A stretch of 64,000 nucleotides of DNA from a virus: UHGV virus genome UHGV-0307316; one strand, given 5' to 3'. Both the position numbers and the translations under genes were made by a program. Shown piece by piece: positions 40,171 to 63,704 of this stretch. Position 1 is the stretch's first letter. Each line of letters opens with the position of its first letter. The notes under the pieces were generated by a model that did no database searches, was not told where the DNA came from, and saw only the letters and a list, made by a program, of their open reading frames with translations.

Positions 40171-41211
40171 ATGGAGAAGTACACATTAACAAAACTTCCC
40201 GATTCAGTTACACATGTCTTTATTGACTCTGACAGTATTGCCTATAAAGGTGCTTGTGTAGTTGAGAAAGCAAAATATAAATACGTCAATAAACTCACAG
40301 CAGAAGAATCTGAACCATTTGACAATGCGAAAGATGCTGCAAGATGGTTAGCAGACCAGAGAATCCTTGTGGAAGAACTTGGCCTGACATTTGATGAAGA
40401 TGAATGGGAAAGACAGACTTGGAAAGAAGCTAAGAGTGAAAAAGAAGCTATCATGGCTACTCAACAGGTGCTTCAGGAATGGCTTAAGGTTGTTGGTAAA
40501 GAAAGAACTTGGGTAGGTTATTTAACAGAGAAAGGTGTGCATAAACATAAAGACATTAAAGGTCTTGAGCACCAATATCAAGGTAACCGTAAAGATGCTG
40601 TCACACCAACACACTTAGTTGCTTGTCGTGAATACCTTTTATCCAGACCAGAGTTCAAGCTCTTAAAGGGGGGCTTCGAAGCCGATTCAATCGTAATTGC
40701 TAAAGCTGAAAAGATGGGTAAGAAGGCTGCTCTTATGAGTATTGATAAAGACCTTCGACAAGCTGAAGGAACTTATTGTATTGATATGACTTATGAAAAA
40801 TCACCACTAATCTTTATTGCTGATAATAATGTTGGTGATATCTGGGATTGTCCTATCAAATCAAAACCAAAAGCTGCAAAAACAGTTGGTGTAGGTTTTA
40901 AGTTCTTGTGCTATCAGGCTGTTGCTGGAGATAATGCAGACAACTACTTCGGACTTAAAGGTGCTGGTAAAGTAGCTGTGATGAATGCTTTAGATGGTAA
41001 AGAGACCTACAAAGAGTGTCTTGATGCTATCTATGAACTCTATGCTAAAAAAGACTCTTATACCTATGTGTCATGGGATGGACAGACTGTTACAAAGACA
41101 CCGTTAGAGTTAATGGAACAGCATTTCTGGATAGCATATCAAGAGAGAAATCCAAAAGACAATTTCTCTTTCAAGAAATATAATTGGGAGCCGTGTATGA
41201 ATGAAGATTAA
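40171..41211 (+). CDS. 5'-3' exonuclease (T7 gp6-like)
   Basis: Colinear T7 gp6-like blocks: VFIDSDSIAYKGA, YQGNRK, MSIDKDL, GDNADNYFGLKGAG. Confidence 0.75.
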   Translation: MEKYTLTKLPDSVTHVFIDSDSIAYKGACVVEKAKYKYVNKLTAEESEPFDNAKDAARWLADQRILVEELGLTFDEDEWERQTWKEAKSEKEAIMATQQVLQEWLKVVGKERTWVGYLTEKGVHKHKDIKGLEHQYQGNRKDAVTPTHLVACREYLLSRPEFKLLKGGFEADSIVIAKAEKMGKKAALMSIDKDLRQAEGTYCIDMTYEKSPLIFIADNNVGDIWDCPIKSKPKAAKTVGVGFKFLCYQAVAGDNADNYFGLKGAGKVAVMNALDGKETYKECLDAIYELYAKKDSYTYVSWDGQTVTKTPLELMEQHFWIAYQERNPKDNFSFKKYNWEPCMNED

Positions 41212-41698
41212 AGGATTTGGCAATTGCCCTACCTACGGTCATTGGGTATCTTTATGTGGGGAAGTTGACCCCACTAAACATTTTGGCTTTGTCTATTTAG
41301 TACACTGTAAGAAGACTGGACAATATTATATAGGAAAGAAACAGCTTAACAGTGTGACCAAAAGAAAAGTTGCTGGGAAGACTCGGAAGAAGGTAGTCAC
41401 TAAGGAAAGTGATTGGATGACTTACGAAACCTCTTCTGAGTATATTAAAAAAGATATTGAGAGCTTTGGAAAAGAATTTTTTGACTTTTACATTATTCAG
41501 ACCTACTACACAAAAGGTGGCCTAGTCTATGGTGAAGCAAACCTTCAACATAAATTCGATGTAATGACAAAAAGGATTGACTCGAAGCTCAGACTCTTCT
41601 ACAATGCCAATATTGCAGCAATTAAGTTTATTACTAAAGAAACTTATGAAGATGCTGAAAAAAGAATCCATAAGGTAATGAAAGCAAATTGTGCTTGA
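41201..41698 (+). CDS. GIY-YIG-like nuclease domain protein (putative homing endonuclease)
   Basis: FGFVYLVHCKKTGQYYIGKK resembles the GIY..YIG signature; small basic protein. Confidence 0.35.
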   Translation: MKIKGFGNCPTYGHWVSLCGEVDPTKHFGFVYLVHCKKTGQYYIGKKQLNSVTKRKVAGKTRKKVVTKESDWMTYETSSEYIKKDIESFGKEFFDFYIIQTYYTKGGLVYGEANLQHKFDVMTKRIDSKLRLFYNANIAAIKFITKETYEDAEKRIHKVMKANCA

Positions 41699-41704
41699 TA
41701 ACTA

Positions 41705-41968
41705 TTGAGAGAGAATAAAATGTTTAACAAAAGCAAAGCTGTGAGTCATGTAGCAAAAGTTGACAGCAAGATTGAAGAACTTGAGCGCATCCTTGCAAAT
41801 GCCAGAGAGTCAATAATCAAAGAAGTTGAAGCTGTTGAATCTCAAATGCAGCACCTAATGCTTAAACGTCAAGAGCTACGTGAGCATCTAGAATATATTG
41901 AAACACGAGAGCTAAAAGTTAACAGATATTTTAAGGAGTCCGAATGTTTAACTCAAGAGAATCAGTAA
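41705..41968 (+). CDS. Hypothetical coiled-coil protein
   Basis: 87 aa ORF. Confidence 0.3.
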   Translation: MRENKMFNKSKAVSHVAKVDSKIEELERILANARESIIKEVEAVESQMQHLMLKRQELREHLEYIETRELKVNRYFKESECLTQENQ

Positions 41969-42699
41969 AAAACTGGAACCTTCGTTGTGGAAACACTCAA
42001 AAGCAACCTTACAGTGATGAGTATTGGGAATCTTTAAAATCTCAATCTCTGTGTATGCTTGAAGAAGCAAAAGAGCTTGTAAAAGCAATTGAAGAGAAAG
42101 ACCCCATTGAGACACTGGATGCTCAGGCAGATTTGCAATATGTTCTTGACGGTTTGATTTACCTGTCACAACATGACCATAACGGTGCTATGAAAGCTGT
42201 TTGCCGTAATAATGACCTGAAGTACACAGATGACTATGAAGAAGCTTTAAAACGTCTTGCAGACATTGAAAAGCGTACTGGTCAAGAGTGTATTATCAGA
42301 ATGTCAGTAGTTGATGGTAAAGAGTGGTATGCGATTGTTCGTACAGCCGATGGGAAGATTATGAAGCAATCAAATCTCCCTAAAGTACAGCTTGGTGAAT
42401 ACATTGTAGAGCTTGAAAGCCAAGAACTTTTTGTGGTAGTATCTGAGACATGCGTTATCTGCAAAGGTATTGTAGGTAGCTTAAAGGATTTGGGTGTAGA
42501 TGGTTTTGTAGAAGTTAATCCAATTACCTCTAAAGCAGATAAAGACTTCTGTAAAGAGAACGGACTATGGATTGCAGATATTGTCTACTATGATGGTGAG
42601 CAGTTCCATGTAACCTCATACCCGAAACTGAATTATGATGCTAATAACCTGAAGTGCTGGTTAAAAGGGGTTGGTTATAATGGATTCACAGAACATTAA
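41944..42699 (+). CDS. Hypothetical protein, possible MazG-like NTP pyrophosphohydrolase N-terminal domain
   Basis: Acidic helix pair (LEEAKELVKAIEE ... DAQADLQYVLDGL) reminiscent of MazG EExxE...D motifs; weak. Confidence 0.3.
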   Translation: MFNSRESVKNWNLRCGNTQKQPYSDEYWESLKSQSLCMLEEAKELVKAIEEKDPIETLDAQADLQYVLDGLIYLSQHDHNGAMKAVCRNNDLKYTDDYEEALKRLADIEKRTGQECIIRMSVVDGKEWYAIVRTADGKIMKQSNLPKVQLGEYIVELESQELFVVVSETCVICKGIVGSLKDLGVDGFVEVNPITSKADKDFCKENGLWIADIVYYDGEQFHVTSYPKLNYDANNLKCWLKGVGYNGFTEH

Positions 42700-50684: not shown

Positions 50685-51170
50685 ATGAATTACATGGAGA
50701 TTCGACCATTTGATACAGCTAATGGTGAAGGGGTTCGTGTAAGCCTCTTCGTAGCTGGTTGTAAGCATCACTGCGAAGGCTGCTTTAACAGGGAGTCTTG
50801 GAAGTTTAATGCTGGTAAAGAGTTTACTTATGCAAACCTTTATGGCATTCTAAGACTTTTGGAAGATGACTCTTTAAGTGGGCTGTCTATCCTCGGTGGA
50901 GAACCATTGGATGACCGTAACATTGGAGAAGTCACTAAGATTTGTCAGAAGGTTAAATCAATCTATCCAGAGAAATCTATCTGGCTCTGGACAGGTTTTC
51001 AGTTACATGAAAAAATTCACCTTGATGTGATGAAATATGTTGACGTGGTGATTGATGGTAAGTATGATTCATCTAAACCAACAGTTAAACCATATCGTGG
51101 TTCTAATAACCAAAACCTCTGGAGAAAAGAGTATGGGTGGCAAGGTGATTGTCAGTGGAGAGCAGAGTGA
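50685..51170 (+). CDS. nrdG: Anaerobic RNR activating protein (radical SAM)
   Basis: CKHHCEGC radical-SAM cysteine motif near N-terminus; small size; near nrdD. Confidence 0.8.
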   Translation: MNYMEIRPFDTANGEGVRVSLFVAGCKHHCEGCFNRESWKFNAGKEFTYANLYGILRLLEDDSLSGLSILGGEPLDDRNIGEVTKICQKVKSIYPEKSIWLWTGFQLHEKIHLDVMKYVDVVIDGKYDSSKPTVKPYRGSNNQNLWRKEYGWQGDCQWRAE

Positions 51171-51250
51171 TTATTCTGGCAAATGGACTAAGGTATAACT
51201 CCAATTGGTATCACTGAAGAAGAACTTCATAAGTTCTGTATTAAACTTTA

Positions 51251-51535
51251 ATGAGAGAGAGACTAAAAATGGGAATTTTAGGTAATATGAAAGCTGGATT
51301 CTTGAAGGCACTGGAAAAAGCAGCAGCAATTGTTTCTATGACTGGAAAGCAGGTCGGTGTAGATGCTTCAGTGGTTGCACAGGTTCTTGCAAGCCAAATT
51401 GAACAGCAGCCTTACATCTACGTAGGCCGTGGTAAAGGTGGTAAGAAACAAGCCCACCGTCCGTCTGGTGCAGCAGCTATTAAACGAGCAGCTAAGAAAG
51501 CTCGTAACCGTAAACGTAATAAGAAGGCTAAATAA
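51251..51535 (+). CDS. Hypothetical protein with Lys/Arg-rich C-terminus
   Basis: 94 aa; C-terminal AKKARNRKRNKKAK. Confidence 0.3.
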   Translation: MRERLKMGILGNMKAGFLKALEKAAAIVSMTGKQVGVDASVVAQVLASQIEQQPYIYVGRGKGGKKQAHRPSGAAAIKRAAKKARNRKRNKKAK

Positions 51536-51537
51536 TC

Positions 51538-51858
51538 ATGAGCAAAGTTTATAACACTCGCAAATTACAGATTTTCGTACTGTGCCAGTTTATGGCTAAA
51601 GAATACAACTTCTACTATTGTGGTACAGGTTTTATTAGTGATGATGATGGCTCATACCTCCCATTTAAAGAAGCTGTAAAGCTCTTTAATGAAGAGAAAA
51701 GCTCTAAGAAAGATATTGAAAAGGTTAAGCTAACCTACAGCAAGAAAGATAAGAAGATTATCTGCCTAGATAACTTTGTGAAAGTTACTGGAGAAGCAAA
51801 AGAGTTTATGGATGAGAGTGAGATTTCATTCACAAGCATCTTGAAAGTAGCTCAGTAA
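51538..51858 (+). CDS. Hypothetical protein
   Basis: 106 aa ORF. Confidence 0.3.
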   Translation: MSKVYNTRKLQIFVLCQFMAKEYNFYYCGTGFISDDDGSYLPFKEAVKLFNEEKSSKKDIEKVKLTYSKKDKKIICLDNFVKVTGEAKEFMDESEISFTSILKVAQ

Positions 51859-51871
51859 ACAGATACTATAA

Positions 51872-51896
51872 GGGGACTGTAAAGGTTCCCTTTTTA
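51872..51896 (+). terminator. Rho-independent terminator
   Basis: GGGGAC-loop-GTTCCC hairpin followed by TTTTT. Confidence 0.45.
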
Positions 51897-51909
51897 TTTT
51901 GGAGATGAT

Positions 51910-52425
51910 ATGTATCTGTCAAACCTAAAACGTTCTGCTGCAATGTCAGTGCTAAGACTCAGCTTTGAGGAACGTCAAGAGTTCATTGACTCCCACCAAT
52001 ACGACCCCTCAAACTCCAATCACATGATTCTCTGGAATCGTGAAAGTACTCGTGAAAGAGCACTATTCCGTTATTACCCACACTACACTATAGATAACCT
52101 GTATGAATTGTTTGTTGTGAAGAACACCATTACAGTGCTCAATAAACTTTGCAGATACACAGGTAGCCAATCCTTCACATTAGGTCACCACAAGCCTGTT
52201 ACAAAGGGTGGTGAGCATCACTGTGCAAACTGGTTTATCCAGACTAAGCTTGATAACCAGAAGCAAGGCGACAGTCTTCTAAGCATCCCTAAGATGACCT
52301 ACGAAGAGCAAGAGAAATATATCAAAAATAATATGCCAGATGTGCTTGACAACAACTATACAGATTTGGCAATATCTCTCCTGTTGAAGTTCGAGACAGT
52401 TTATAGGGCAACTTACAATGGCTAA
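51910..52425 (+). CDS. HNH endonuclease (putative)
   Basis: LGHHKPVTKGGEHHCANWFIQTKLDNQKQG resembles the HNH core (His pair, Asn, Cys). Confidence 0.45.
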   Translation: MYLSNLKRSAAMSVLRLSFEERQEFIDSHQYDPSNSNHMILWNRESTRERALFRYYPHYTIDNLYELFVVKNTITVLNKLCRYTGSQSFTLGHHKPVTKGGEHHCANWFIQTKLDNQKQGDSLLSIPKMTYEEQEKYIKNNMPDVLDNNYTDLAISLLLKFETVYRATYNG

Positions 52426-52696
52426 AGAGAAGTGGGAAATTTTACCATTAGTCAGTGAAGGTGGTAATGGTTGTGAAATGTACATGATACGTGGTCATGT
52501 TCCAGAACCAATTGCACTTGAGATGGTAAACAACTTTACAGATGGTTCTTACAAAGACTTAGGAGAGCCAACTATAAAGCATCAATGGGTAAAACCTGTA
52601 CCAGACAGCACAGGTAACTGTAGTGTACTTTACCACGTTGTAGACCCTGTAAAATGCAAATCTGCAATGGCAGTAACAAACGTAACCTTTGATTGA
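52418..52696 (+). CDS. Hypothetical protein
   Basis: 92 aa ORF. Confidence 0.3.
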   Translation: MAKEKWEILPLVSEGGNGCEMYMIRGHVPEPIALEMVNNFTDGSYKDLGEPTIKHQWVKPVPDSTGNCSVLYHVVDPVKCKSAMAVTNVTFD

Positions 52697-53589
52697 GAGA
52701 CAAAACTATGAAAACATCTATCCGTGTTACAGTTCATTCACCAACTAAAGGGACTCACGAAGAAGAGTTTAACATCGTCCAATTTCCTTCTGGTGAGATT
52801 GGTGGACATTTTTCACCAGAGTTTGTTGATTTTACTGCTTATGCTGCATCATCCATCAACAACGTGATTATGATTATAAAGGGTTATGACAAAGACACAT
52901 TATTTGCTGTGGCACTTGCTAAAGAGGTAATTGATGATTTAGTACCTCATAAGTTTGCTATGAAGACTGCTATCTTTTACTATTTGCCAAATGCACGTTA
53001 CGACCGTCACATGTTTAAAGGTGATGCAGCAGCTTTGAAAGTGTTTGCACAACAGGTTAATGCAATGGGTTTTGATGCAGTCTGTGCAGTTGACCCTCAT
53101 AGTTACGTTCCAGATAACCTTTTCAATTGCTTCCAGAGTATTCCTCAAAAGGAGATTGCAGTCCATTACGCAAATGACCCTCTGATTGATTACTTAGTAG
53201 CCCCAGATGCAGGTGCTTCTAAGAAGATTGCAGAGACTGCTAAAGAGGTGGATAAACCATATATCACAATGTCTAAGGTGCGAAATCTTAAGACTGGAGA
53301 AATCACTGGTATGCGAATCCTTGACGATGTTGATTTGACCGATAAAACCGTCATGATTCTTGATGATATCTGTGATGGTGGTCGAACCTTCGTAGAGGCA
53401 GCTAAACACCTACGTGAAGCAGGTGCAAAACGTGTAGAGCTTTATGTAACACATGGTATCTTCTCTAAAGATGTTGAAAACCTTCTTGACAATGGTATCG
53501 ACCATATTTACACTACAAACTCTTTAGGCGAAGCTAAAGACCGTGGCTTAACACATTACAGTCAAGTTACTGTAGCAAACCTTGATTGA
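52693..53589 (+). CDS. Ribose-phosphate pyrophosphokinase family protein (Prs-like; candidate ADP-ribose pyrophosphokinase Adps)
   Basis: PRPP-synthetase-type C-terminal half: VAPDAGA, phosphoribosyl-binding loop VMILDDICDGGRT, YVTHGIFS. Confidence 0.75.
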   Translation: MRDKTMKTSIRVTVHSPTKGTHEEEFNIVQFPSGEIGGHFSPEFVDFTAYAASSINNVIMIIKGYDKDTLFAVALAKEVIDDLVPHKFAMKTAIFYYLPNARYDRHMFKGDAAALKVFAQQVNAMGFDAVCAVDPHSYVPDNLFNCFQSIPQKEIAVHYANDPLIDYLVAPDAGASKKIAETAKEVDKPYITMSKVRNLKTGEITGMRILDDVDLTDKTVMILDDICDGGRTFVEAAKHLREAGAKRVELYVTHGIFSKDVENLLDNGIDHIYTTNSLGEAKDRGLTHYSQVTVANLD

Positions 53590-53636
53590 AACTTTATATG
53601 GGCTTGAAAGACCCATTTTGAGAGAGAGATTAAAAG

Positions 53637-55418
53637 ATGACTAAATCACTTTATGCAGTACCAGCAGGTTTAAACGCGGATGCTTACAAGTCTGGCCATG
53701 TTTACCAGTACCCTAGTGCAACAGAATACTTGATGTTCAACCTGACACCACGTAGTGACAAATGGTTTAACAGCCCTTTAGCAATTGACGGTGTAGTGGC
53801 TTTTGGTATTCAACGTTTTGTTAAAGATTACTTGATAGACCACTGGAACGCCACTTTCTTTGAACGTGATAAAAAAGAAGCAATTGACGAAATCTTAGAA
53901 GTCATGAATGGTGTTCTGGGTAAAGATGCTATCGGTCGAGAGCATTGGGAAGCACTTCACGACTTAGGTTATCTACCAGTTGAAGTATACGCGGTAGAAG
54001 AAGGTACAGTTGTCCCTATGCGTGTCCCAATGATTGTCTTCCAGAACACTGTTTCAGGTTTCCATTGGGTAGCAGGTTATCTGGAAGATGCTTTCTCTGC
54101 TGAGATTTGGAAGGCTTGCACTATTGCAACTATTGCATTGCATTACAAACGCATCTGTAAGAAGTGGGCTGACCTTACTTGTGACAACGACTTACATCTG
54201 CCCTATCAGTGCCATGACTTTGCTATGCGTGGTATGTCCGGCTTTACTGATGACGCATTTAACGCTGTAGGTCACTTAACCAGCTTTAAAGGAACCGATA
54301 GCTTCCCTGCTGTATACACGGCTAAACGCATCTATGGACAGTCTTACCCAATCTCTGATATTGGTAGTTCTGTACCAGCCACTGAACACTCTGTAATGTG
54401 TGCAAACATTGCTTGGGAAGGTGGTAATGAATTGATTGAAGAAGAAAGACGCTTTAAAGGTGAGTTACAAACCTTCCGTCGTTTCTTAACAGAAACTTAC
54501 CCAACTGGTATTGCAAGTATTGTTTCAGATACTTATAACTTCTGGAGAACTGTGTCAGAAATCTTACCAGCACTCCGTAAAGAAATTATGGAACGTGATG
54601 GTAAACTGGTAATTCGCCCTGACTCTGGAGACCCTGTACATATTGTCACAGGTTATAAAGCAATCCACTTAGAGTGTGCTAAAAAGGCTTATTACGAGCA
54701 CCTAAGCAAGCTTGAAGCCAGCGACACAATGTTGAATGCTGTTCTGAACATGAAGCTTGAAAACATCAACTATGGTATTGCTGGATGGCTACTGTCAGAA
54801 GGCTACGAAATGGTTGTTGACAGAGAAGACTTTGAAGTAGCCGATACAGTGTTGCTGAAAGATGCTTACATCAACGGCTCTGCAAACGTTGTAACACGTC
54901 CTGTAGCGGAGATTGATGGAGCTATTAAGACACTGTACAACATCTTTGGGGGAACTATTAACTCTAAAGGGTTTAAGGTACTGGATGAGCACATTGGCCT
55001 TATCTATGGCGACTCTATCACGCTGGAACGTGCAAACGAAATCCTGAAGCGTCTGTATGAAATGGGTTTTGCAAGCTCTAACGTAGTGTTTGGTGTAGGC
55101 TCTTACACTTACCAGTACATGACTCGTGACACCTTTGCATTTGCTGTTAAAGCAACTCTTGCAAGCATTGGTGGTAAAGAGATTATGCTTGCAAAAGACC
55201 CTAAAACAGATAGTGGTGTTAAGAAGTCTGCTTTTGGTGGTGTAGTACCTATGTGGAATGGTGATAAGTTGAAAGCTGTAGATGGCTATGGATTCCAGAG
55301 CTTTGCAGATGTACTTGAACATCCAGCTTGTGCTCTACGTTTAGTCTTTAGTGACTCTGAGCAGTATGGTTACACATCTCTTGGTGATATTCGAAATAAT
55401 ATTGACAAGCAGCTTTAA
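53637..55418 (+). CDS. Nicotinamide phosphoribosyltransferase family protein (NadV-like; candidate nicotinamide ADPR transferase Namat)
   Basis: 593 aa ORF with NAMPT-like N-terminus (NADAYKSGHVYQYP); immediately downstream of Prs-like gene. Confidence 0.7.
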   Translation: MTKSLYAVPAGLNADAYKSGHVYQYPSATEYLMFNLTPRSDKWFNSPLAIDGVVAFGIQRFVKDYLIDHWNATFFERDKKEAIDEILEVMNGVLGKDAIGREHWEALHDLGYLPVEVYAVEEGTVVPMRVPMIVFQNTVSGFHWVAGYLEDAFSAEIWKACTIATIALHYKRICKKWADLTCDNDLHLPYQCHDFAMRGMSGFTDDAFNAVGHLTSFKGTDSFPAVYTAKRIYGQSYPISDIGSSVPATEHSVMCANIAWEGGNELIEEERRFKGELQTFRRFLTETYPTGIASIVSDTYNFWRTVSEILPALRKEIMERDGKLVIRPDSGDPVHIVTGYKAIHLECAKKAYYEHLSKLEASDTMLNAVLNMKLENINYGIAGWLLSEGYEMVVDREDFEVADTVLLKDAYINGSANVVTRPVAEIDGAIKTLYNIFGGTINSKGFKVLDEHIGLIYGDSITLERANEILKRLYEMGFASSNVVFGVGSYTYQYMTRDTFAFAVKATLASIGGKEIMLAKDPKTDSGVKKSAFGGVVPMWNGDKLKAVDGYGFQSFADVLEHPACALRLVFSDSEQYGYTSLGDIRNNIDKQL

Positions 55419-55429
55419 AAGTATATGAT
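55402..55429 (+). promoter_or_regulatory. Candidate promoter inside 3' end of NadV-like gene
   Basis: TTGACAAG (55402-55409), ~16-nt spacer, TATGAT. Confidence 0.35.
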
Positions 55430-55431
55430 AA

Positions 55432-55455
55432 AAGGCTCCCGTAGGAGCCTTTTTA
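55432..55455 (+). terminator. Rho-independent terminator after NadV-like gene
   Basis: GGCTCC-CGTA-GGAGCC followed by TTTTT. Confidence 0.6.
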
Positions 55456-55471
55456 ATTTCTGGAGAAGACT

Positions 55472-55807
55472 ATGAAAATCAAAGAAATGAACATCAACAT
55501 TGTCTTAGAAGAACGTTGGGAGAACATCAAGAAGCATGAAGATGGTCATAAGTTCCTTAACAAAATTTTAGTAGCAGCTAAAGAAGAACTGGCTGGCAAG
55601 GTTGCAGCAGCAATCACAATAAAGGTTTGTGTAAAAGGTCTTCCACAACATCACCAATTTGCACTTGACGAGTTTAAAGAAAGCTTCTACAATCCAAACA
55701 AACAGATGCTTGAAAGTAACTTTGCAGTATCTACAAGTATCGTTCATGACAGAAGCTTTATCCTTTACAAGAATATGAGAGGTGAGTCATGCAAGCATAT
55801 TGGATAG
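55472..55807 (+). CDS. Hypothetical protein
   Basis: 111 aa ORF. Confidence 0.3.
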   Translation: MKIKEMNINIVLEERWENIKKHEDGHKFLNKILVAAKEELAGKVAAAITIKVCVKGLPQHHQFALDEFKESFYNPNKQMLESNFAVSTSIVHDRSFILYKNMRGESCKHIG

Positions 55808-55965
55808 AAATTTTACTGTCACTTGGTAGTGTAGCAGTATTTGTTTACCTCCTTTGTAAGTACTTTGCAGAGCACAAAAAATGTGACTACTGTAATGGAG
55901 AGGGGTACATAAGGGCAGGATGTTGTCCTATGTGTGGTGGTTCTGGTAAAATGTTTAATAAGTAA
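55789..55965 (+). CDS. Unlisted small ORF (58 aa): membrane-anchored protein with two DnaJ-type CxxCxGxG zinc-finger motifs
   Basis: ATG at 55789 preceded by GAGGTGAG; translation MQAYWIEILLSLGSVAVFVYLLCKYFAEHKKCDYCNGEGYIRAGCCPMCGGSGKMFNK; below the 60-aa ORF-track cutoff. Confidence 0.45.
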   Translation: MQAYWIEILLSLGSVAVFVYLLCKYFAEHKKCDYCNGEGYIRAGCCPMCGGSGKMFNK

Positions 55966-55993
55966 TTTAACAGTAAACTGAGAGGAAAGTATT

Positions 55994-58360
55994 ATGCGCA
56001 TGGTAAATGACCACGCAGAAGTGATTAAGAGTTCAACTTCTTTAGAGACGTCTCAAGCACAGATTACAATGACACCTGAGATGTTCAGCCTTTTGAGTTC
56101 TGGTGTATATACCTTTAAAGAAAGGGCAGTGATTCGTGAACTGTCATGTAACGCAGTAGATGCTCAGAAAGAAGCTGGAAAAGAGAACATCCCATTCCAT
56201 GTGCATTTACCTACTCGTTTTGAGCCTTACTTCGAAGTTCGTGATTTTGGAACTGGATTGACTCATGATAAAGTTATGAGTTTGTACCTAAACTATGGAG
56301 CTTCTACGAAGAATGACTCTAATGACTACATTGGTGCAATGGGTATCGGCTCAAAGTCACCATTTGCAATTGCTCAGTCATTCACAGTATCTAGTTATGT
56401 TGACGGTGTTGTTAATAAGTACTCTGTTTATCTTGAGAATGGTATCCCTCAAGTAACTAAGCTGACAACTAACCAAACAAAAGAACCTAATGGTTTAGCT
56501 GTACGTGTGGCAGTTGCTGACCACCGTATCTCAAAGTTCTTTGAAGAAGCTGGGAATGTGTACTCATACTTCACTGTAAAACCAGAAAGTAATATTGAGT
56601 ACGACGATGTATTAGCAGATATGAACGTAATTGCCCGTGAAGAAGGTGTTTATGATGCCATGATTCATAAGCACAGCTGGCGTTCTAGTGATAACAGGAC
56701 AGAGTTTAATGTGGTGATGGGTAACATTGCCTATCCAGTGAACATGGAAGCGTTACTTGGTGATGATTTCTTCAAAGTCTTGCCAGAGTTTTTCCGTAGG
56801 AGCGTAGACCTTGTAAACATCTACATGCCTATTGGTTCAGTTGCTATTGCAGCTTCTCGTGAAGCATTGCAGATGAATGACACGACAAAAAATGTTATCA
56901 TTGAGGCTACTAAAAAGATAACTGAAGCAATTACAAAGGATGTTATCAAGAAAGTTAATAGCCAACCTACACTCATGGATGCTGCACAGGCTTATGCTGA
57001 GTTACGTTTGAACTCACGAGAGATGTTTAATGCTGTGTGTCCAAAGCTAGAGTGGGGTGGCGTTAAGCTTGATTCTCTGGAAGAAGAATTGCTAAACATT
57101 CGTCGTGGAATTATCTACGCAGAAGACGGCTCAGTCATTTATGAACGTGATGGTAAAGGCAATATTAAGGTTGATAGGAACGGGAACAATATACCTAAAG
57201 TAGATTATCTTTATGACCCAGTTGCTTATGTCAAGTTCAACTCTTTAGAGAGTAAGATTCGTGCAACATCGCTTTCCTACACTCAAGAGGCAAGTATGTT
57301 CAATATCTTTGGTGCAATGCGTAAAAGCCAAATTGAACAGTTTTTGTTCGTGATTAATGACCGTCGCAATAAAAATGGTACTGAGAAGACTGTAGGCCGC
57401 AATCAGATTCTGCGTGGTGCATGTCGAGACTACGCCAGTGAGTCAAGTCTGTTTCACAGATACAATGGTATTGTGTTTGTATTCTCGACTGAAAAAGAGT
57501 TAGACGACCTAATCAATCTACACAAACTTGATAAAAGCTTGTTAAAGATTGTGAAAATGTCTGATAAGGAGCACCATTACCAGCGCAAAGAAGCTGTAAG
57601 GGGTGTTGTAAAACTCTGGAAAGCTGTTCCAGCAGAAGGTGTAGCTTCCTATAAAGAGGTTTCAGAGGACTTAGACACAATTGAAGAACCTCAGCTTTAC
57701 ATTAAGGCAATTGGTGACACAGTTGATGGTGAATGTTTTTGCTCATCCCCAGAAGATGTAGCTAAGTCAGTTGCTAATGTTATTGGAAAGACAGTCTATG
57801 TTTTCCGAAAAGCAAATTGGAAAAAGATACCAGAAGACTGGATTGAAGTAGATGAGAAGCTCTTGAACGACAGCTTAACTGATGTTCATTGGATTAATCA
57901 TAACAGGTATACGACACGCATCTACATGAATGGTGTTCTTGACCTTACAAGTAGCTGGATTATTGCCAGAAACTTTACGTTCAATAACAGGAAGATTTCT
58001 CGTGGCTATTGCTATTCACGGGATACAAACAAAACTATCTTCCTAGAAGGTAATGAAGAGGCTGTAGAGGCAATGTTTGGTAAAATCCAGTATGTTGCTG
58101 CACCATTTGCATACACTTACACTATTAGTGTGTTGAAAACTTTGAAAGATTGTCTTGACAACGATACAAAGCTTTACAAGAAAATTAAGAAAGCTGGTGA
58201 CCGTATGGTTATTAAGGTGACAAACTACCTTTCAAAAAGAAAACAAGAAAACTTCTTGCTTTCTCATTTAGATTGGAATAAAGTGTCACCCATCGAAGTG
58301 AGTAAGTTCTTAGGTTTTGATGTGAAGTGTGTTCCAGAAGGAACTACAGTTTACGATTAA
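55994..58360 (+). CDS. rIIA-like protein with N-terminal GHKL-type ATPase domain
   Basis: Bergerat-fold motifs: N-box ELSCNAVDA (ExxxNAxDA), G1 box DFGTGLT, G2 box GAMGIGSKS; ~790 aa as for rIIA-family proteins. Confidence 0.5.
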   Translation: MRMVNDHAEVIKSSTSLETSQAQITMTPEMFSLLSSGVYTFKERAVIRELSCNAVDAQKEAGKENIPFHVHLPTRFEPYFEVRDFGTGLTHDKVMSLYLNYGASTKNDSNDYIGAMGIGSKSPFAIAQSFTVSSYVDGVVNKYSVYLENGIPQVTKLTTNQTKEPNGLAVRVAVADHRISKFFEEAGNVYSYFTVKPESNIEYDDVLADMNVIAREEGVYDAMIHKHSWRSSDNRTEFNVVMGNIAYPVNMEALLGDDFFKVLPEFFRRSVDLVNIYMPIGSVAIAASREALQMNDTTKNVIIEATKKITEAITKDVIKKVNSQPTLMDAAQAYAELRLNSREMFNAVCPKLEWGGVKLDSLEEELLNIRRGIIYAEDGSVIYERDGKGNIKVDRNGNNIPKVDYLYDPVAYVKFNSLESKIRATSLSYTQEASMFNIFGAMRKSQIEQFLFVINDRRNKNGTEKTVGRNQILRGACRDYASESSLFHRYNGIVFVFSTEKELDDLINLHKLDKSLLKIVKMSDKEHHYQRKEAVRGVVKLWKAVPAEGVASYKEVSEDLDTIEEPQLYIKAIGDTVDGECFCSSPEDVAKSVANVIGKTVYVFRKANWKKIPEDWIEVDEKLLNDSLTDVHWINHNRYTTRIYMNGVLDLTSSWIIARNFTFNNRKISRGYCYSRDTNKTIFLEGNEEAVEAMFGKIQYVAAPFAYTYTISVLKTLKDCLDNDTKLYKKIKKAGDRMVIKVTNYLSKRKQENFLLSHLDWNKVSPIEVSKFLGFDVKCVPEGTTVYD

Positions 58361-62918: not shown

Positions 62919-63704
62919 ATGGGTATTGTAAAAATCATCAATGGTGATATCTTTGCTGCATTTGATAAAGGTAAGTTTGACATCATTGGTCATGGTTGTA
63001 ACTGCATGAACCTAATGGGCGCAGGTATCGCTGACAAGATTTCTAAACTTTACCCAAAAGCATATGAGACCGATACAGAAGTTTATCTCTATGCAGGTGG
63101 TATAGGTCACAAACCCTGTGAGAATTTACTAGGTAATTTCTCTGTAGCACGCTTAAAACAAGGTCGTATAGCTAACCTTTACACTCAGCTTAAGACTGGT
63201 AAAGATGCCCGATACAGTGCTTTAGAGTCATCTTTGAAGCAACTTAACAGATACTGTGAAGTTAATCAGTTGAAGAAAGTTGGTTTACCTATGATTGGTG
63301 CAGGTATCGGTGGACTTGACCCTCAAGCCGTCACAGTTATCATCAATCAGGTGATGAAGAGTGTAGATGTTTATCTATATGTCTATGAAGGAGAGATGTA
63401 CCACAAGTTACTCTCAGGTTGGAAGAACTACTGTGAACCAGAATACTTTGCAGGTGTAGCAGTGTTCACAGATAACGCAGTTACCCTCTTCAGACGAAGA
63501 AAAGGTAAGATACATCAAAGTAACCCTCCGGTTGAAAAGATGTCTCTAAGTAACGCTCTAGTTACCCACCTGTCAAAGAGCAATCACAGAATTGCTGTAA
63601 CATTTGGTAGTGATGCAGAAGCTTATATCTATGCAAGAACTGATGAGGATATTGAGGCAATCTTCTCTTCACCAGAAGTTACCTTCTTAGACGCAAAGAA
63701 CTAA
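62919..63704 (+). CDS. Macro-domain protein (TARG1/DarG-like ADP-ribosyl hydrolase, putative) with C-terminal unknown domain
   Basis: N-terminal 140 aa resemble TARG1-type macro domains: GDIF...IGHGCNCMNLMGAGIA and GLPMIGAGIGGLD. Confidence 0.5.
   Translation: MGIVKIINGDIFAAFDKGKFDIIGHGCNCMNLMGAGIADKISKLYPKAYETDTEVYLYAGGIGHKPCENLLGNFSVARLKQGRIANLYTQLKTGKDARYSALESSLKQLNRYCEVNQLKKVGLPMIGAGIGGLDPQAVTVIINQVMKSVDVYLYVYEGEMYHKLLSGWKNYCEPEYFAGVAVFTDNAVTLFRRRKGKIHQSNPPVEKMSLSNALVTHLSKSNHRIAVTFGSDAEAYIYARTDEDIEAIFSSPEVTFLDAKN

Follow-up and report, generated by a model that had tools for sequence, protein, structure and literature searches.

Two adjacent genes in a Felixounavirus genome have their orthologues in genes 79 and 80 of Escherichia phage Bas63 (JohannRWettstein, MZ501086; bas63_0079/0080), the operon where NAD+ reconstitution pathway 1 (NARP1) was discovered, and judged from their sequences they very probably form a functional NARP1 operon of this genus. 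The DNA analysed, hereafter the window, is a stretch of 64,000 nucleotides from virus genome UHGV-0307316, which 260 phage records match, the top one at 96% DNA identity; Bas63 is likewise classed in Felixounavirus. A first-pass annotation had read the pair as NARP1-type enzymes, an ADP-ribose pyrophosphate synthetase (Adps) and a nicotinamide ADP-ribose transferase (Namat), rather than conventional Prs and NAMPT, and orthology to Bas63 genes 79-80, the clamp motifs of Namat, and the residues of Adps bear this out. The novelty it implied for the pair does not stand: the system is already published as NARP1, the pair belongs to its founding lineage, and the present result is one of annotation, not discovery. 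The identification of Adps and Namat rests on orthology, gene order, diagnostic residues and motifs, and the lack of a detectable NMN adenylyltransferase (NMNAT).

In the proposed mechanism, NAD+-depleting host defences (SIR2-HerA/Nezha, Thoeris, DSR1/2, SEFIR, and similar systems) split NAD+ into ADP-ribose (ADPR) and nicotinamide. Adps would then move the β,γ-pyrophosphate of ATP to the terminal ribose of ADPR, yielding ADPR-PP, and Namat would swap the pyrophosphate of ADPR-PP for nicotinamide, yielding NAD+ directly without an NMNAT step. For the window pair, we infer ADPR-PP synthesis, NAD+ synthesis, and a counter-defence phenotype from published work on orthologues. Deletion of genes 79-80 abolished the escape of Bas63 from SIR2-HerA, and infected cells contained ADPR-PP when these genes were present (bioRxiv 10.1101/2024.02.11.579819); plating of the deletion mutant on SIR2-HerA hosts was reduced about 20-fold, and NAD+ loss was worse. 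Since the Bas63 protein purified poorly, the in vitro biochemistry comes from the SPbetaL1, ICP1, and DyoEdafos enzymes, which convert ADPR and ATP to ADPR-PP, convert ADPR-PP and nicotinamide to NAD+, and prefer ADPR-PP over PRPP, while the activity of Bas63 is known in vivo only, via ADPR-PP in infected cells. A published survey found Namat next to 97% of the genes in the Adps clade.

Comparison with the Bas63 genome places adps and namat at the same position and in the same order as genes 79-80, and both ORFs lie on the plus strand; neither is broken, and each spans the whole length of its Bas63 orthologue. The pair is part of a block of four genes that is conserved and has a terminator on either side. 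The probable 5′ boundary of the transcription unit is a terminator-like hairpin found by terminator scan (51870..51892, +), and phage Moogle has a terminator annotated at the equivalent position. The unit is closed by an intrinsic-terminator-like hairpin of 10 pairs with a T-run (AAAAGGCTCC-CGTA-GGAGCCTTTT; 55430..55453, +), as the first-pass annotation had proposed for the region downstream of Namat. Namat adjoins adps on the same strand, and this hairpin is the sole terminator of the pair; the scan found none in the 47-nt spacer between the genes (53590..53636, +), which carries a purine-rich ribosome-binding stretch (GAGAGAGAGA) ahead of the Namat ATG. The terminator-bounded block would be co-transcribed. 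The two ORFs upstream of adps (51910..52696, +) keep their order in Bas63 and Moogle: ORF171, which is HNH-like (51910-52425, +), is the first ORF in the block, and ORF92, with no function assigned (52418-52696, +), is confined to Ounavirinae and has its stop codon 11 nt before the Adps ATG. Both are candidate NARP1 members only. A role for ORF92 as a RyR-domain, RyDEP-type NARP1 accessory was considered and rejected, with no Pfam match even at E 10. Three antisense ORFs within the two genes (54795-55322, 52939-53166, and 53194-53409) are treated as chance ORFs because none of the three has a PHROG match, and an Rfam scan of 51000-56500 returned a single sub-threshold sRNA match (E 0.07) and nothing else.

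The first gene, adps (52708..53589, +), encodes a PRPS-like protein of 293 aa that is 79% identical to Bas63_0079 over 293 aa and matches PHROG 619 “ribose-phosphate pyrophosphokinase” (E 1.7e-97) and Pfam Pribosyltran/Pribosyl_synth. These matches confirm the ORF and family of the Prs homolog that had been called at 52693-53589, a reading of 298 aa from TTG 52693, but the start is probably ATG 52708, since a GAGAG Shine-Dalgarno-like element lies 8 nt upstream of it and it agrees with the start codons annotated for Bas63 and Moogle. The TTG shares nucleotides with the stop codon of the preceding ORF and lacks a Shine-Dalgarno-like element. At the sequence level, Adps is closer to characterised Adps proteins than to E. 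coli Prs, with BLASTP E-values of 1e-35 for ICP1 Adps, 4e-29 for SPbetaL1 Adps, and 8e-17 for E. coli Prs. Profile searches place it below the cutoff of every NCBIfam Prs equivalog model, the best score being 105 bits where the cutoff is 296 (which the E. coli Prs control, at 232 bits, also misses) and another being 67 bits against 438. The only Prs model that it passes is the broad TIGR01251 subfamily model (125 versus 113 bits), and the highest score of the E. coli control on any NCBIfam Prs model is 533 bits, obtained with a subfamily model whose cutoff is 297.

The roles of ligand and catalytic residues have been mapped on the ICP1 Adps structure (PMC13586617), and eight of them align with identical residues in the window protein: F26, R97, H131, D167, K190, D219, D220, and D223 correspond to ICP1 F18, R87, H121, D161, K185, D212, D213, and D216. 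Lys190 lies in the catalytic β-hairpin region MSKVRNLKTGEITGM (53269..53313, +), and the K185A substitution in ICP1 Adps abolishes ADPR-PP formation (PMC13586617). The three aspartates D219, D220, and D223 fall within the PP-loop region VMILDDICDGGRT (aa 215-227 of 293; 53350..53388, +), a loop that the first-pass annotation had quoted and that is indeed present, and its DDICDG motif is common to ICP1 Adps. Inspection of the substrate pocket found one adenine contact that differs, with Met102 of the window protein aligned to Phe92 of ICP1 Adps. In a sequence alignment with E. coli Prs, Adps ends about 20 residues earlier (293 versus 315 aa); canonical PRPS enzymes have a C-terminal α11-α12 regulatory and filament module, which a NARP1-type Adps is expected to lack. 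A PDB sequence search returned canonical PRPS enzymes only (best 4twb, E 3e-19) from a set of structures that excludes ICP1 Adps. Structures of ICP1 Adps are described (PMC13586617), and with these outside the searched set a comparison of folds could not tell Adps and Prs apart.

The second gene, namat (53637..55418, +), encodes a NAMPT-like protein of 593 aa with 98% identity to Bas63_0080 over its 593 aa, and the NadV homolog reported at these positions is an intact ORF that matches PHROG 448 “nicotinamide phosphoribosyl transferase” (E 5e-202) and Pfam NAPRTase/NAMPT_N. In a PDB search, the SPbetaL1 Namat structures 9w5w/9w5x score 432 bits and Nampt structures at most 180 bits. Two clamp elements distinguish the protein. 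The selectivity-clamp loop (SCL) TPRSDKWFNSPLAIDG (53745..53792, +) contains K42-W43 and is the same as in Bas63; in a Bas63-type SCL, the residue after the lysine stacks on adenine (PMC12774641). The second element, the SCH adenine clamp motif GSYTYQYMTRD (aa 488-498; 55098..55130, +), is recognised by alignment and by the published consensus of the Namat-specific SCH motif (PMC12774641), and Xanthomonas Nampt has GGALLQKVDRD at this place. As judged from these alignments, the aromatic adenine clamp is present in the window Namat and absent from true Nampt. The core residues D15, Y17, F195, R198, D221, A248, H251, R327, D329, G458, and D459 are shared with SPbetaL1 Namat, as are G488, S489, and R497. 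The ATEHSVMC segment (54378..54401, +) is kept in the window, Bas63, ICP1, and SPbetaL1 proteins, and the conserved catalytic histidine described for these enzymes (PMC12774641) would, by alignment, be H251 of the Nampt-like core. Moreover, gaps in the PDB and multiple alignments with SPbetaL1 and ICP1 Namat reveal an 88-aa insertion (aa 340-427; 54654..54917, +) between the RPDSGDP strand and the next helix. It is 47% identical to that of Moogle, against 78-84% for the remainder of the protein, and a tblastn search with a 97-aa query spanning it matched only 254 records, all of Ounavirinae type. This Ounavirinae-specific insertion is a possible lead in its own right.

The foremost alternative is conventional salvage, in which a true PRPP synthetase and a true Nampt would make NMN, and host NadR/NadD or an unseen phage NMNAT would finish NAD+ in a NARP2-like manner. 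The Pfam, PHROG, and NCBIfam names of the two proteins are indeed those of Prs and NAPRTase/Nampt, and Adps does narrowly exceed the broad TIGR01251 cutoff. In addition, Namat enzymes retain side activity on PRPP, with SPbetaL1 Namat making NMN from PRPP in vitro, and given this activity the window Namat may form some NMN. Nevertheless, this explanation is very improbable. Adps misses all Prs equivalog cutoffs by a wide margin, Namat carries an aromatic adenine clamp that Nampt lacks, and in published phylogenies the Nampt of NARP2 forms a separate clade found in phages without Adps. Nor was an NMNAT found, and the earlier claim that the window has none agrees with the searches made: Pfam searches of ten otherwise unannotated window ORFs gave no nucleotidyltransferase match, a scan for the (H/T)xGH motif in all window frames of at least 100 aa recovered an HNH-like ORF, a SegE-like endonuclease, and DNA polymerase only, and the annotation of Bas63, a complete genome collinear with the window, lists no NMNAT. 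The ~23 kb of genome beyond the window was judged through that annotation alone.

A second alternative turns to nucleotide metabolism: the pair would mainly provide the PRPP with which the phage makes its DNA, and would influence NAD+ only incidentally. Its appeal lies in the neighbourhood, as the pair sits just downstream of a ribonucleotide reductase cluster (nrdA, nrdB, nrdD, and nrdG) in a long co-directional block, read from Bas63, with which the window is collinear. Every point against conventional salvage holds here too, and wild-type Bas63 left NAD+ no higher than normal in defence-free cells according to published data, which fits an ADPR substrate that arises only after NAD+ cleavage. 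This alternative is more improbable still. The least credible reading is a decayed or non-functional pair, for example through its divergent Adps N-terminal allele (the first ~500 nt of adps are 60-70% identical to Bas63, against 95-98% in the flanks), since neither ORF is interrupted or shortened, the mapped ligand and catalytic residues are all kept, and the window-type allele is the more frequent of the two, with 155 phage records at least 90% identical to the window sequence. At the protein level, the N-terminal domain of Adps (aa 1-165) shares 68% identity with that of Bas63, so the allele tested in Bas63 is not the window allele. The existence of two old alleles of this domain is a possible lead of its own.

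Recognition of the pair as NARP1 has practical consequences. It corrects the “Prs” and “NadV/NAMPT” labels, which are misleading, on nearly all records of these phages, and it aids host-range prediction for Felix-O1-like therapeutic and typing phages. More broadly, NARP1 and NARP2 together allow about 5% of sequenced phages to evade NAD+-depleting defences.

A peripheral and possibly useful lead is an unlinked Adpp-family Macro-domain gene 7.5 kb downstream of the pair (62919-63704). Its product belongs to PHROG 335, as does the in-operon protein of Vibrio phage Noelle, with which it also shares a TARG1/DarG-like match profile, but it extends about 100 aa further at the C-terminus. The NCBIfam DarG match was considered as a means of separating this protein from the Adpp type and was discarded because the Noelle in-operon protein matches identically. 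An Adpp that has been characterised is the in-operon protein of Vibrio phage Gary, a member of the same genus as Noelle. Under the published criterion, NARP1-AP has a Macro-domain protein within two genes of NARP1, and no Macro domain was matched in the two ORFs on either side of the pair (51910-52425, 52418-52696, 55472-55807, and 55789-55965); the published survey, which looked no further than two genes from NARP1 in each direction, would miss the window gene. A tentative and on balance unlikely idea is that Felixounavirus NARP1 is the core of a dispersed NARP1-AP, in which the Macro protein would act in trans as an ADPR-1″-phosphate phosphatase feeding ADPR to Adps. If so, these phages would resist RES-type (aRES) NAD+ phosphorolysis, and the Adps allele split and the fast-evolving Namat insertion could mark a continuing arms race on the pathway.

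Among known systems, Bas63 is the closest: genus, position, gene order, and upstream flanking genes are the same, and the Namat clamp motifs and 88-aa insertion are identical to those of the window. Bas63 differs in its N-terminal allele of Adps and in an extra small gene, bas63_0081, directly after the Namat terminator, which the window lacks. The NARP1 of Bacillus phage SPbetaL1 has the two-gene order and the Namat catalytic core in common with the window, its Adps conserves the catalytic lysine and acidic residues, and its SCH motif reads GSFTYQYNTRD. However, only 46% of Namat and 31% of Adps are identical in multiple alignments, Arg40 occupies the SCL where the window has K42-W43, the Adps PP loop is DDLSSFGG rather than DDICDGGR, and the 88-aa and an additional ~15-aa insertion of the window Namat are absent. 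Vibrio phage ICP1 encodes Adps and Namat as NrsA and NrsB, with DDICDG and the eight ligand/catalytic residues the same as in the window and Namat adjacent, whereas its Adps is 33% identical overall with N-terminal domains that align poorly, and its Namat has no 88-aa insertion. In NARP1-AP (Adps-Adpp-Namat) of Thalassavirus phages such as Gary and Noelle, Adps and Namat are homologous to those of the window, but the Macro gene stands within the operon and not 7.5 kb downstream of it. More distant are NARP2 of Vibrio phage KVP40 (Nampt plus a bifunctional Nmnat) and cellular Prs/NAMPT salvage, with which the window has the Namat/Nampt fold, nicotinamide chemistry, and the PRPS-like fold of Adps in common. 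In contrast to both, the window has Adps scoring under the Prs equivalog cutoffs, an adenine clamp, and no NMNAT found, and the literature gives ADPR, not PRPP, as the substrate of NARP1.

The two plus-strand open reading frames (ORFs) that the first-pass annotation proposed as an NAD+ reconstitution pathway 1 (NARP1) system are where it placed them, match the expected families in both Pfam and PHROG, and very probably constitute a working NARP1. The proposal is supported by orthology to Escherichia phage JohannRWettstein (Bas63), by the residues of the Prs-like protein (Adps), by the selectivity clamp of the NadV/NAMPT-like protein (Namat), and by the lack of a recognizable NMN adenylyltransferase (NMNAT) in the window. 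Orthology, synteny, and diagnostic residues and motifs are all kept, and by analogy with the orthologues the window pair would share their chemistry and phenotype.

The adps ORF (52693-53589, +, 298 aa from TTG) encodes a protein matching Pfam Pribosyltran/Pribosyl_synth and PHROG 619 ("ribose-phosphate pyrophosphokinase", E 1.7e-97), and the loop quoted for it, VMILDDICDGGRT, is found at 53350-53388. The TTG start at 52693, which overlaps the stop codon of the upstream ORF, should nevertheless give way to a likelier ATG at 52708 (293 residues), which has a GAGAG element 8 nt 5' of it and is the counterpart of the annotated orthologue starts in Bas63 and Citrobacter phage Moogle. The namat ORF (53637-55418, +, 593 aa) matches Pfam NAPRTase/NAMPT_N and PHROG 448 ("nicotinamide phosphoribosyl transferase", E 5e-202), and the terminator reported after it is a 10-pair hairpin with a T-run (55430-55453). 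Nothing credible is encoded on the opposite strand: antisense ORFs within the pair have no PHROG match. An Rfam scan around the pair gave nothing significant.

A megablast search with 52400-55900 matched 260 phage records (top identity 96%), almost all Felix-O1-type phages of Escherichia, Salmonella, Shigella and Citrobacter, in which the genes are labeled "ribose-phosphate pyrophosphokinase" and "nicotinamide phosphoribosyltransferase"; thus the window, about 64 kb long, belongs to a Felixounavirus genome. Its sequence runs collinear with Bas63 (MZ501086), with 92-97% DNA identity around the locus. Some matched records (MG065668.1 and others), labeled "Campylobacter phage A126" (43 kb) and, in one case, as a "Staphylococcus" phage, contain near-identical Felixounavirus sequence (Adps 96% identical) and are probably mislabeled or contaminated. 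NARP1 was discovered in this very lineage, in Bas63 (Osterman et al., bioRxiv 10.1101/2024.02.11.579819). Bas63 lacking both genes plates about 20-fold less well on SIR2-HerA hosts, the wild type partly preserves NAD+, and ADP-ribose pyrophosphate (ADPR-PP, m/z 720.01) is seen only when operon and defence system are present together (Osterman et al.). Because the Bas63 protein purified poorly, in vitro assays used the SPbetaL1 homologues, which convert ADP-ribose (ADPR) and ATP to ADPR-PP, and ADPR-PP and nicotinamide to NAD+, with Namat preferring ADPR-PP over PRPP (Osterman et al.). In direct pairwise comparisons, window Namat is 98% identical to Bas63_0080 over all 593 residues, and window Adps is 79% identical to Bas63_0079 over 293 residues without gaps.

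The main rival explanation is that the pair is a true Prs and Nampt making NMN, and the first gene product bears on it directly. Structures of ICP1 Adps assign ADPR binding and reaction positioning to F18, R87, H121, D161, D212, D213 and D216, and catalysis to K185 (PMC13586617). Aligned with the Adps of Bas63, ICP1 and SPbetaL1 and with E. coli Prs, the window protein has F26, R97, H131, D167, D219, D220 and D223 at the former positions and K190 at that of the catalytic lysine; its PP loop carries the same DDICDG motif as ICP1, and one adenine contact differs, with M102 aligned to ICP1 F92. In pairwise BLASTP, window Adps matches the characterised Adps proteins (ICP1 1e-35, Noelle 4e-36, SPbetaL1 4e-29) more strongly than it does E. 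coli Prs (8e-17). It misses all NCBIfam Prs equivalog cutoffs widely (best 105 bits vs 296) and barely passes the broad subfamily model TIGR01251 (125 vs 113 bits), while E. coli Prs itself reaches 533 bits on the Prs model that fits it best (a subfamily model, cutoff 297). The PDB copy searched with window Adps contained no Adps structure, so a fold comparison could not have helped to tell Adps from Prs.

The second gene product likewise resembles Namat rather than Nampt. In a PDB sequence search, SPbetaL1 Namat (9w5w/9w5x) scores 432 bits, whereas Xanthomonas Nampt reaches only 180 and mammalian NAMPT about 140. The Namat-specific "selectivity clamp" has two elements, of which the SCL loop carries Arg, Lys or Tyr as its third residue; where this is Lys, as in Bas63, stacking is done by the next residue (PMC12774641). 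Window Namat has the same SCL as Bas63 (K42-W43) and, at aa 488-498, the clamp motif GSYTYQYMTRD, where Xanthomonas Nampt has GGALLQKVDRD. The catalytic core shared by Namat and Nampt is intact (D15, Y17, F195, R198, D221, H251, R327, D329, G458, D459). One PDB entry pair labeled "nicotinamide phosphoribosyltransferase" (9ke8/9keo) is close to Namat, scoring 353 bits against the full-length window protein and 120 bits against a C-terminal fragment; its clamp region reads GAQTYQRNTRD, and it may be an intermediate or an enzyme of NARP2 (the Nampt plus Nmnat route).

Both the conventional and the NARP2-type routes would depend on an NMNAT. The claim that the window has none held up within the searches run: none of ten unannotated window ORFs of suitable size has a nucleotidyltransferase Pfam match, and an (H/T)xGH scan of all window reading frames of at least 100 aa hit only an HNH-like ORF, a SegE-like endonuclease and the DNA polymerase. 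The complete Bas63 annotation, through which alone the roughly 23 kb of genome beyond the window were judged, also lists no NMNAT. The Prs plus Nampt explanation is very improbable, and what little probability it has comes mostly from the side activity on PRPP that Namat shows in vitro. As a NARP1, the pair would act on the ADPR and nicotinamide that host NADase effectors release: Adps would pyrophosphorylate the terminal ribose of ADPR with ATP, and Namat would exchange the pyrophosphate for nicotinamide to yield NAD+. Because its substrate would arise only after NAD+ cleavage, NARP1 would be idle in defence-free hosts.

Between a terminator-like hairpin (51870-51892) and the namat terminator lie four co-directional genes: ORF171 (51910-52425, +, HNH-like), ORF92 (52418-52696, +, 92 aa, found only in Ounavirinae), adps, whose ATG follows ORF92 by 11 nt, and namat. 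This order, through the terminator, is kept in Bas63 and in Moogle (sister genus), where the block begins after an annotated terminator and an HNH homing endonuclease is inserted between Adps and Namat (3391-3882 in L012, the Moogle sequence). A role for ORF92 as an RyR-domain (RyDEP) accessory is not supported, as Pfam gives no match. Within 51841-51892 and 55402-55453, a sigma-70-like promoter match (9/12 and 11/12, respectively) directly abuts the 5' arm of the terminator hairpin; judged by consensus only, a transcript initiated there would miss part of that arm and could escape termination, whereas transcripts arriving from upstream would stop. Indel hot spots surround the pair, including one at about 55470; in Bas63 the Namat terminator is directly followed by a small gene (bas63_0081, 15509-15853 in L005, the Bas63 sequence) that is absent from the window, and some Felixounavirus records match this stretch with an HNH endonuclease gene included. 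Just upstream of rIIA, a 58-aa ORF (55789-55965, +) with a hydrophobic N-terminus and two CxxC pairs has weak DnaJ CXXCXGXG-like and DUF5351 matches and is the orthologue of a Bas63 "putative membrane protein". Elsewhere, at 41201-41698 and 41944-42699 (+), a SegE-like GIY-YIG homing endonuclease (Pfam E 9e-28) sits beside a MazG-like nucleotide pyrophosphohydrolase (PHROG 2144, E 6e-102).

The first ~500 nt of adps (52701-53200) are only 60-70% identical to Bas63, whereas the flanks are 95-98% identical and the two Felixounavirus Namats 98%. The first 165 residues of Bas63 Adps share 78% identity with Moogle but only 68% with the window, a pattern suggesting that two old N-terminal alleles circulate in Felixounavirus; of these, the window's is the more frequent, with 155 records showing at least 90% identity to it. 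Relative to the SPbetaL1 and ICP1 proteins, window Namat carries an 88-aa insertion (aa 340-427; 54654-54917, +) and another of only ~15 aa (54408-54467, +). The former, seen in 254 records, all Ounavirinae, has changed more quickly than the rest of Namat (47% vs ~80% identity to Moogle), and Thalassavirus Namat has an unrelated ~48-aa insertion in the same loop.

About 7.5 kb away, a 261-aa protein (62919-63704, +; orthologue of bas63_0095) combines an N-terminal Macro domain (Pfam E 1e-7; PHROG 335 "phosphatase", E 5e-113) with an unassigned C-terminal region of ~100 aa. It shares its PHROG and match profile with a 158-aa Macro protein (29% identity, E 7e-15) that Vibrio phage Noelle encodes between Adps and Namat. 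Members of this Macro family are also frequent among records of T4-like phages, which are not known to carry NARP1. The window and Noelle proteins equally resemble DarG/TARG1-type macrodomains. For both reasons the link to NARP1 is hypothetical, and it seems rather doubtful that the window protein is an unlinked Adpp (ADPR-1''-P phosphatase) serving the pair. In Vibrio phage Gary, of the same genus as Noelle, an in-operon Adpp converts ADPR-1''-P to ADPR, extending NARP1 against aRES defence; the Adpp survey covered two genes each side of NARP1, and would thus miss a gene at this distance (bioRxiv 10.64898/2026.01.28.702374).

Taken against known systems, the window pair is the published NARP1 in its founding lineage, and the practical gain is a corrected annotation, Adps/Namat instead of Prs/NadV, together with a few peripheral leads.
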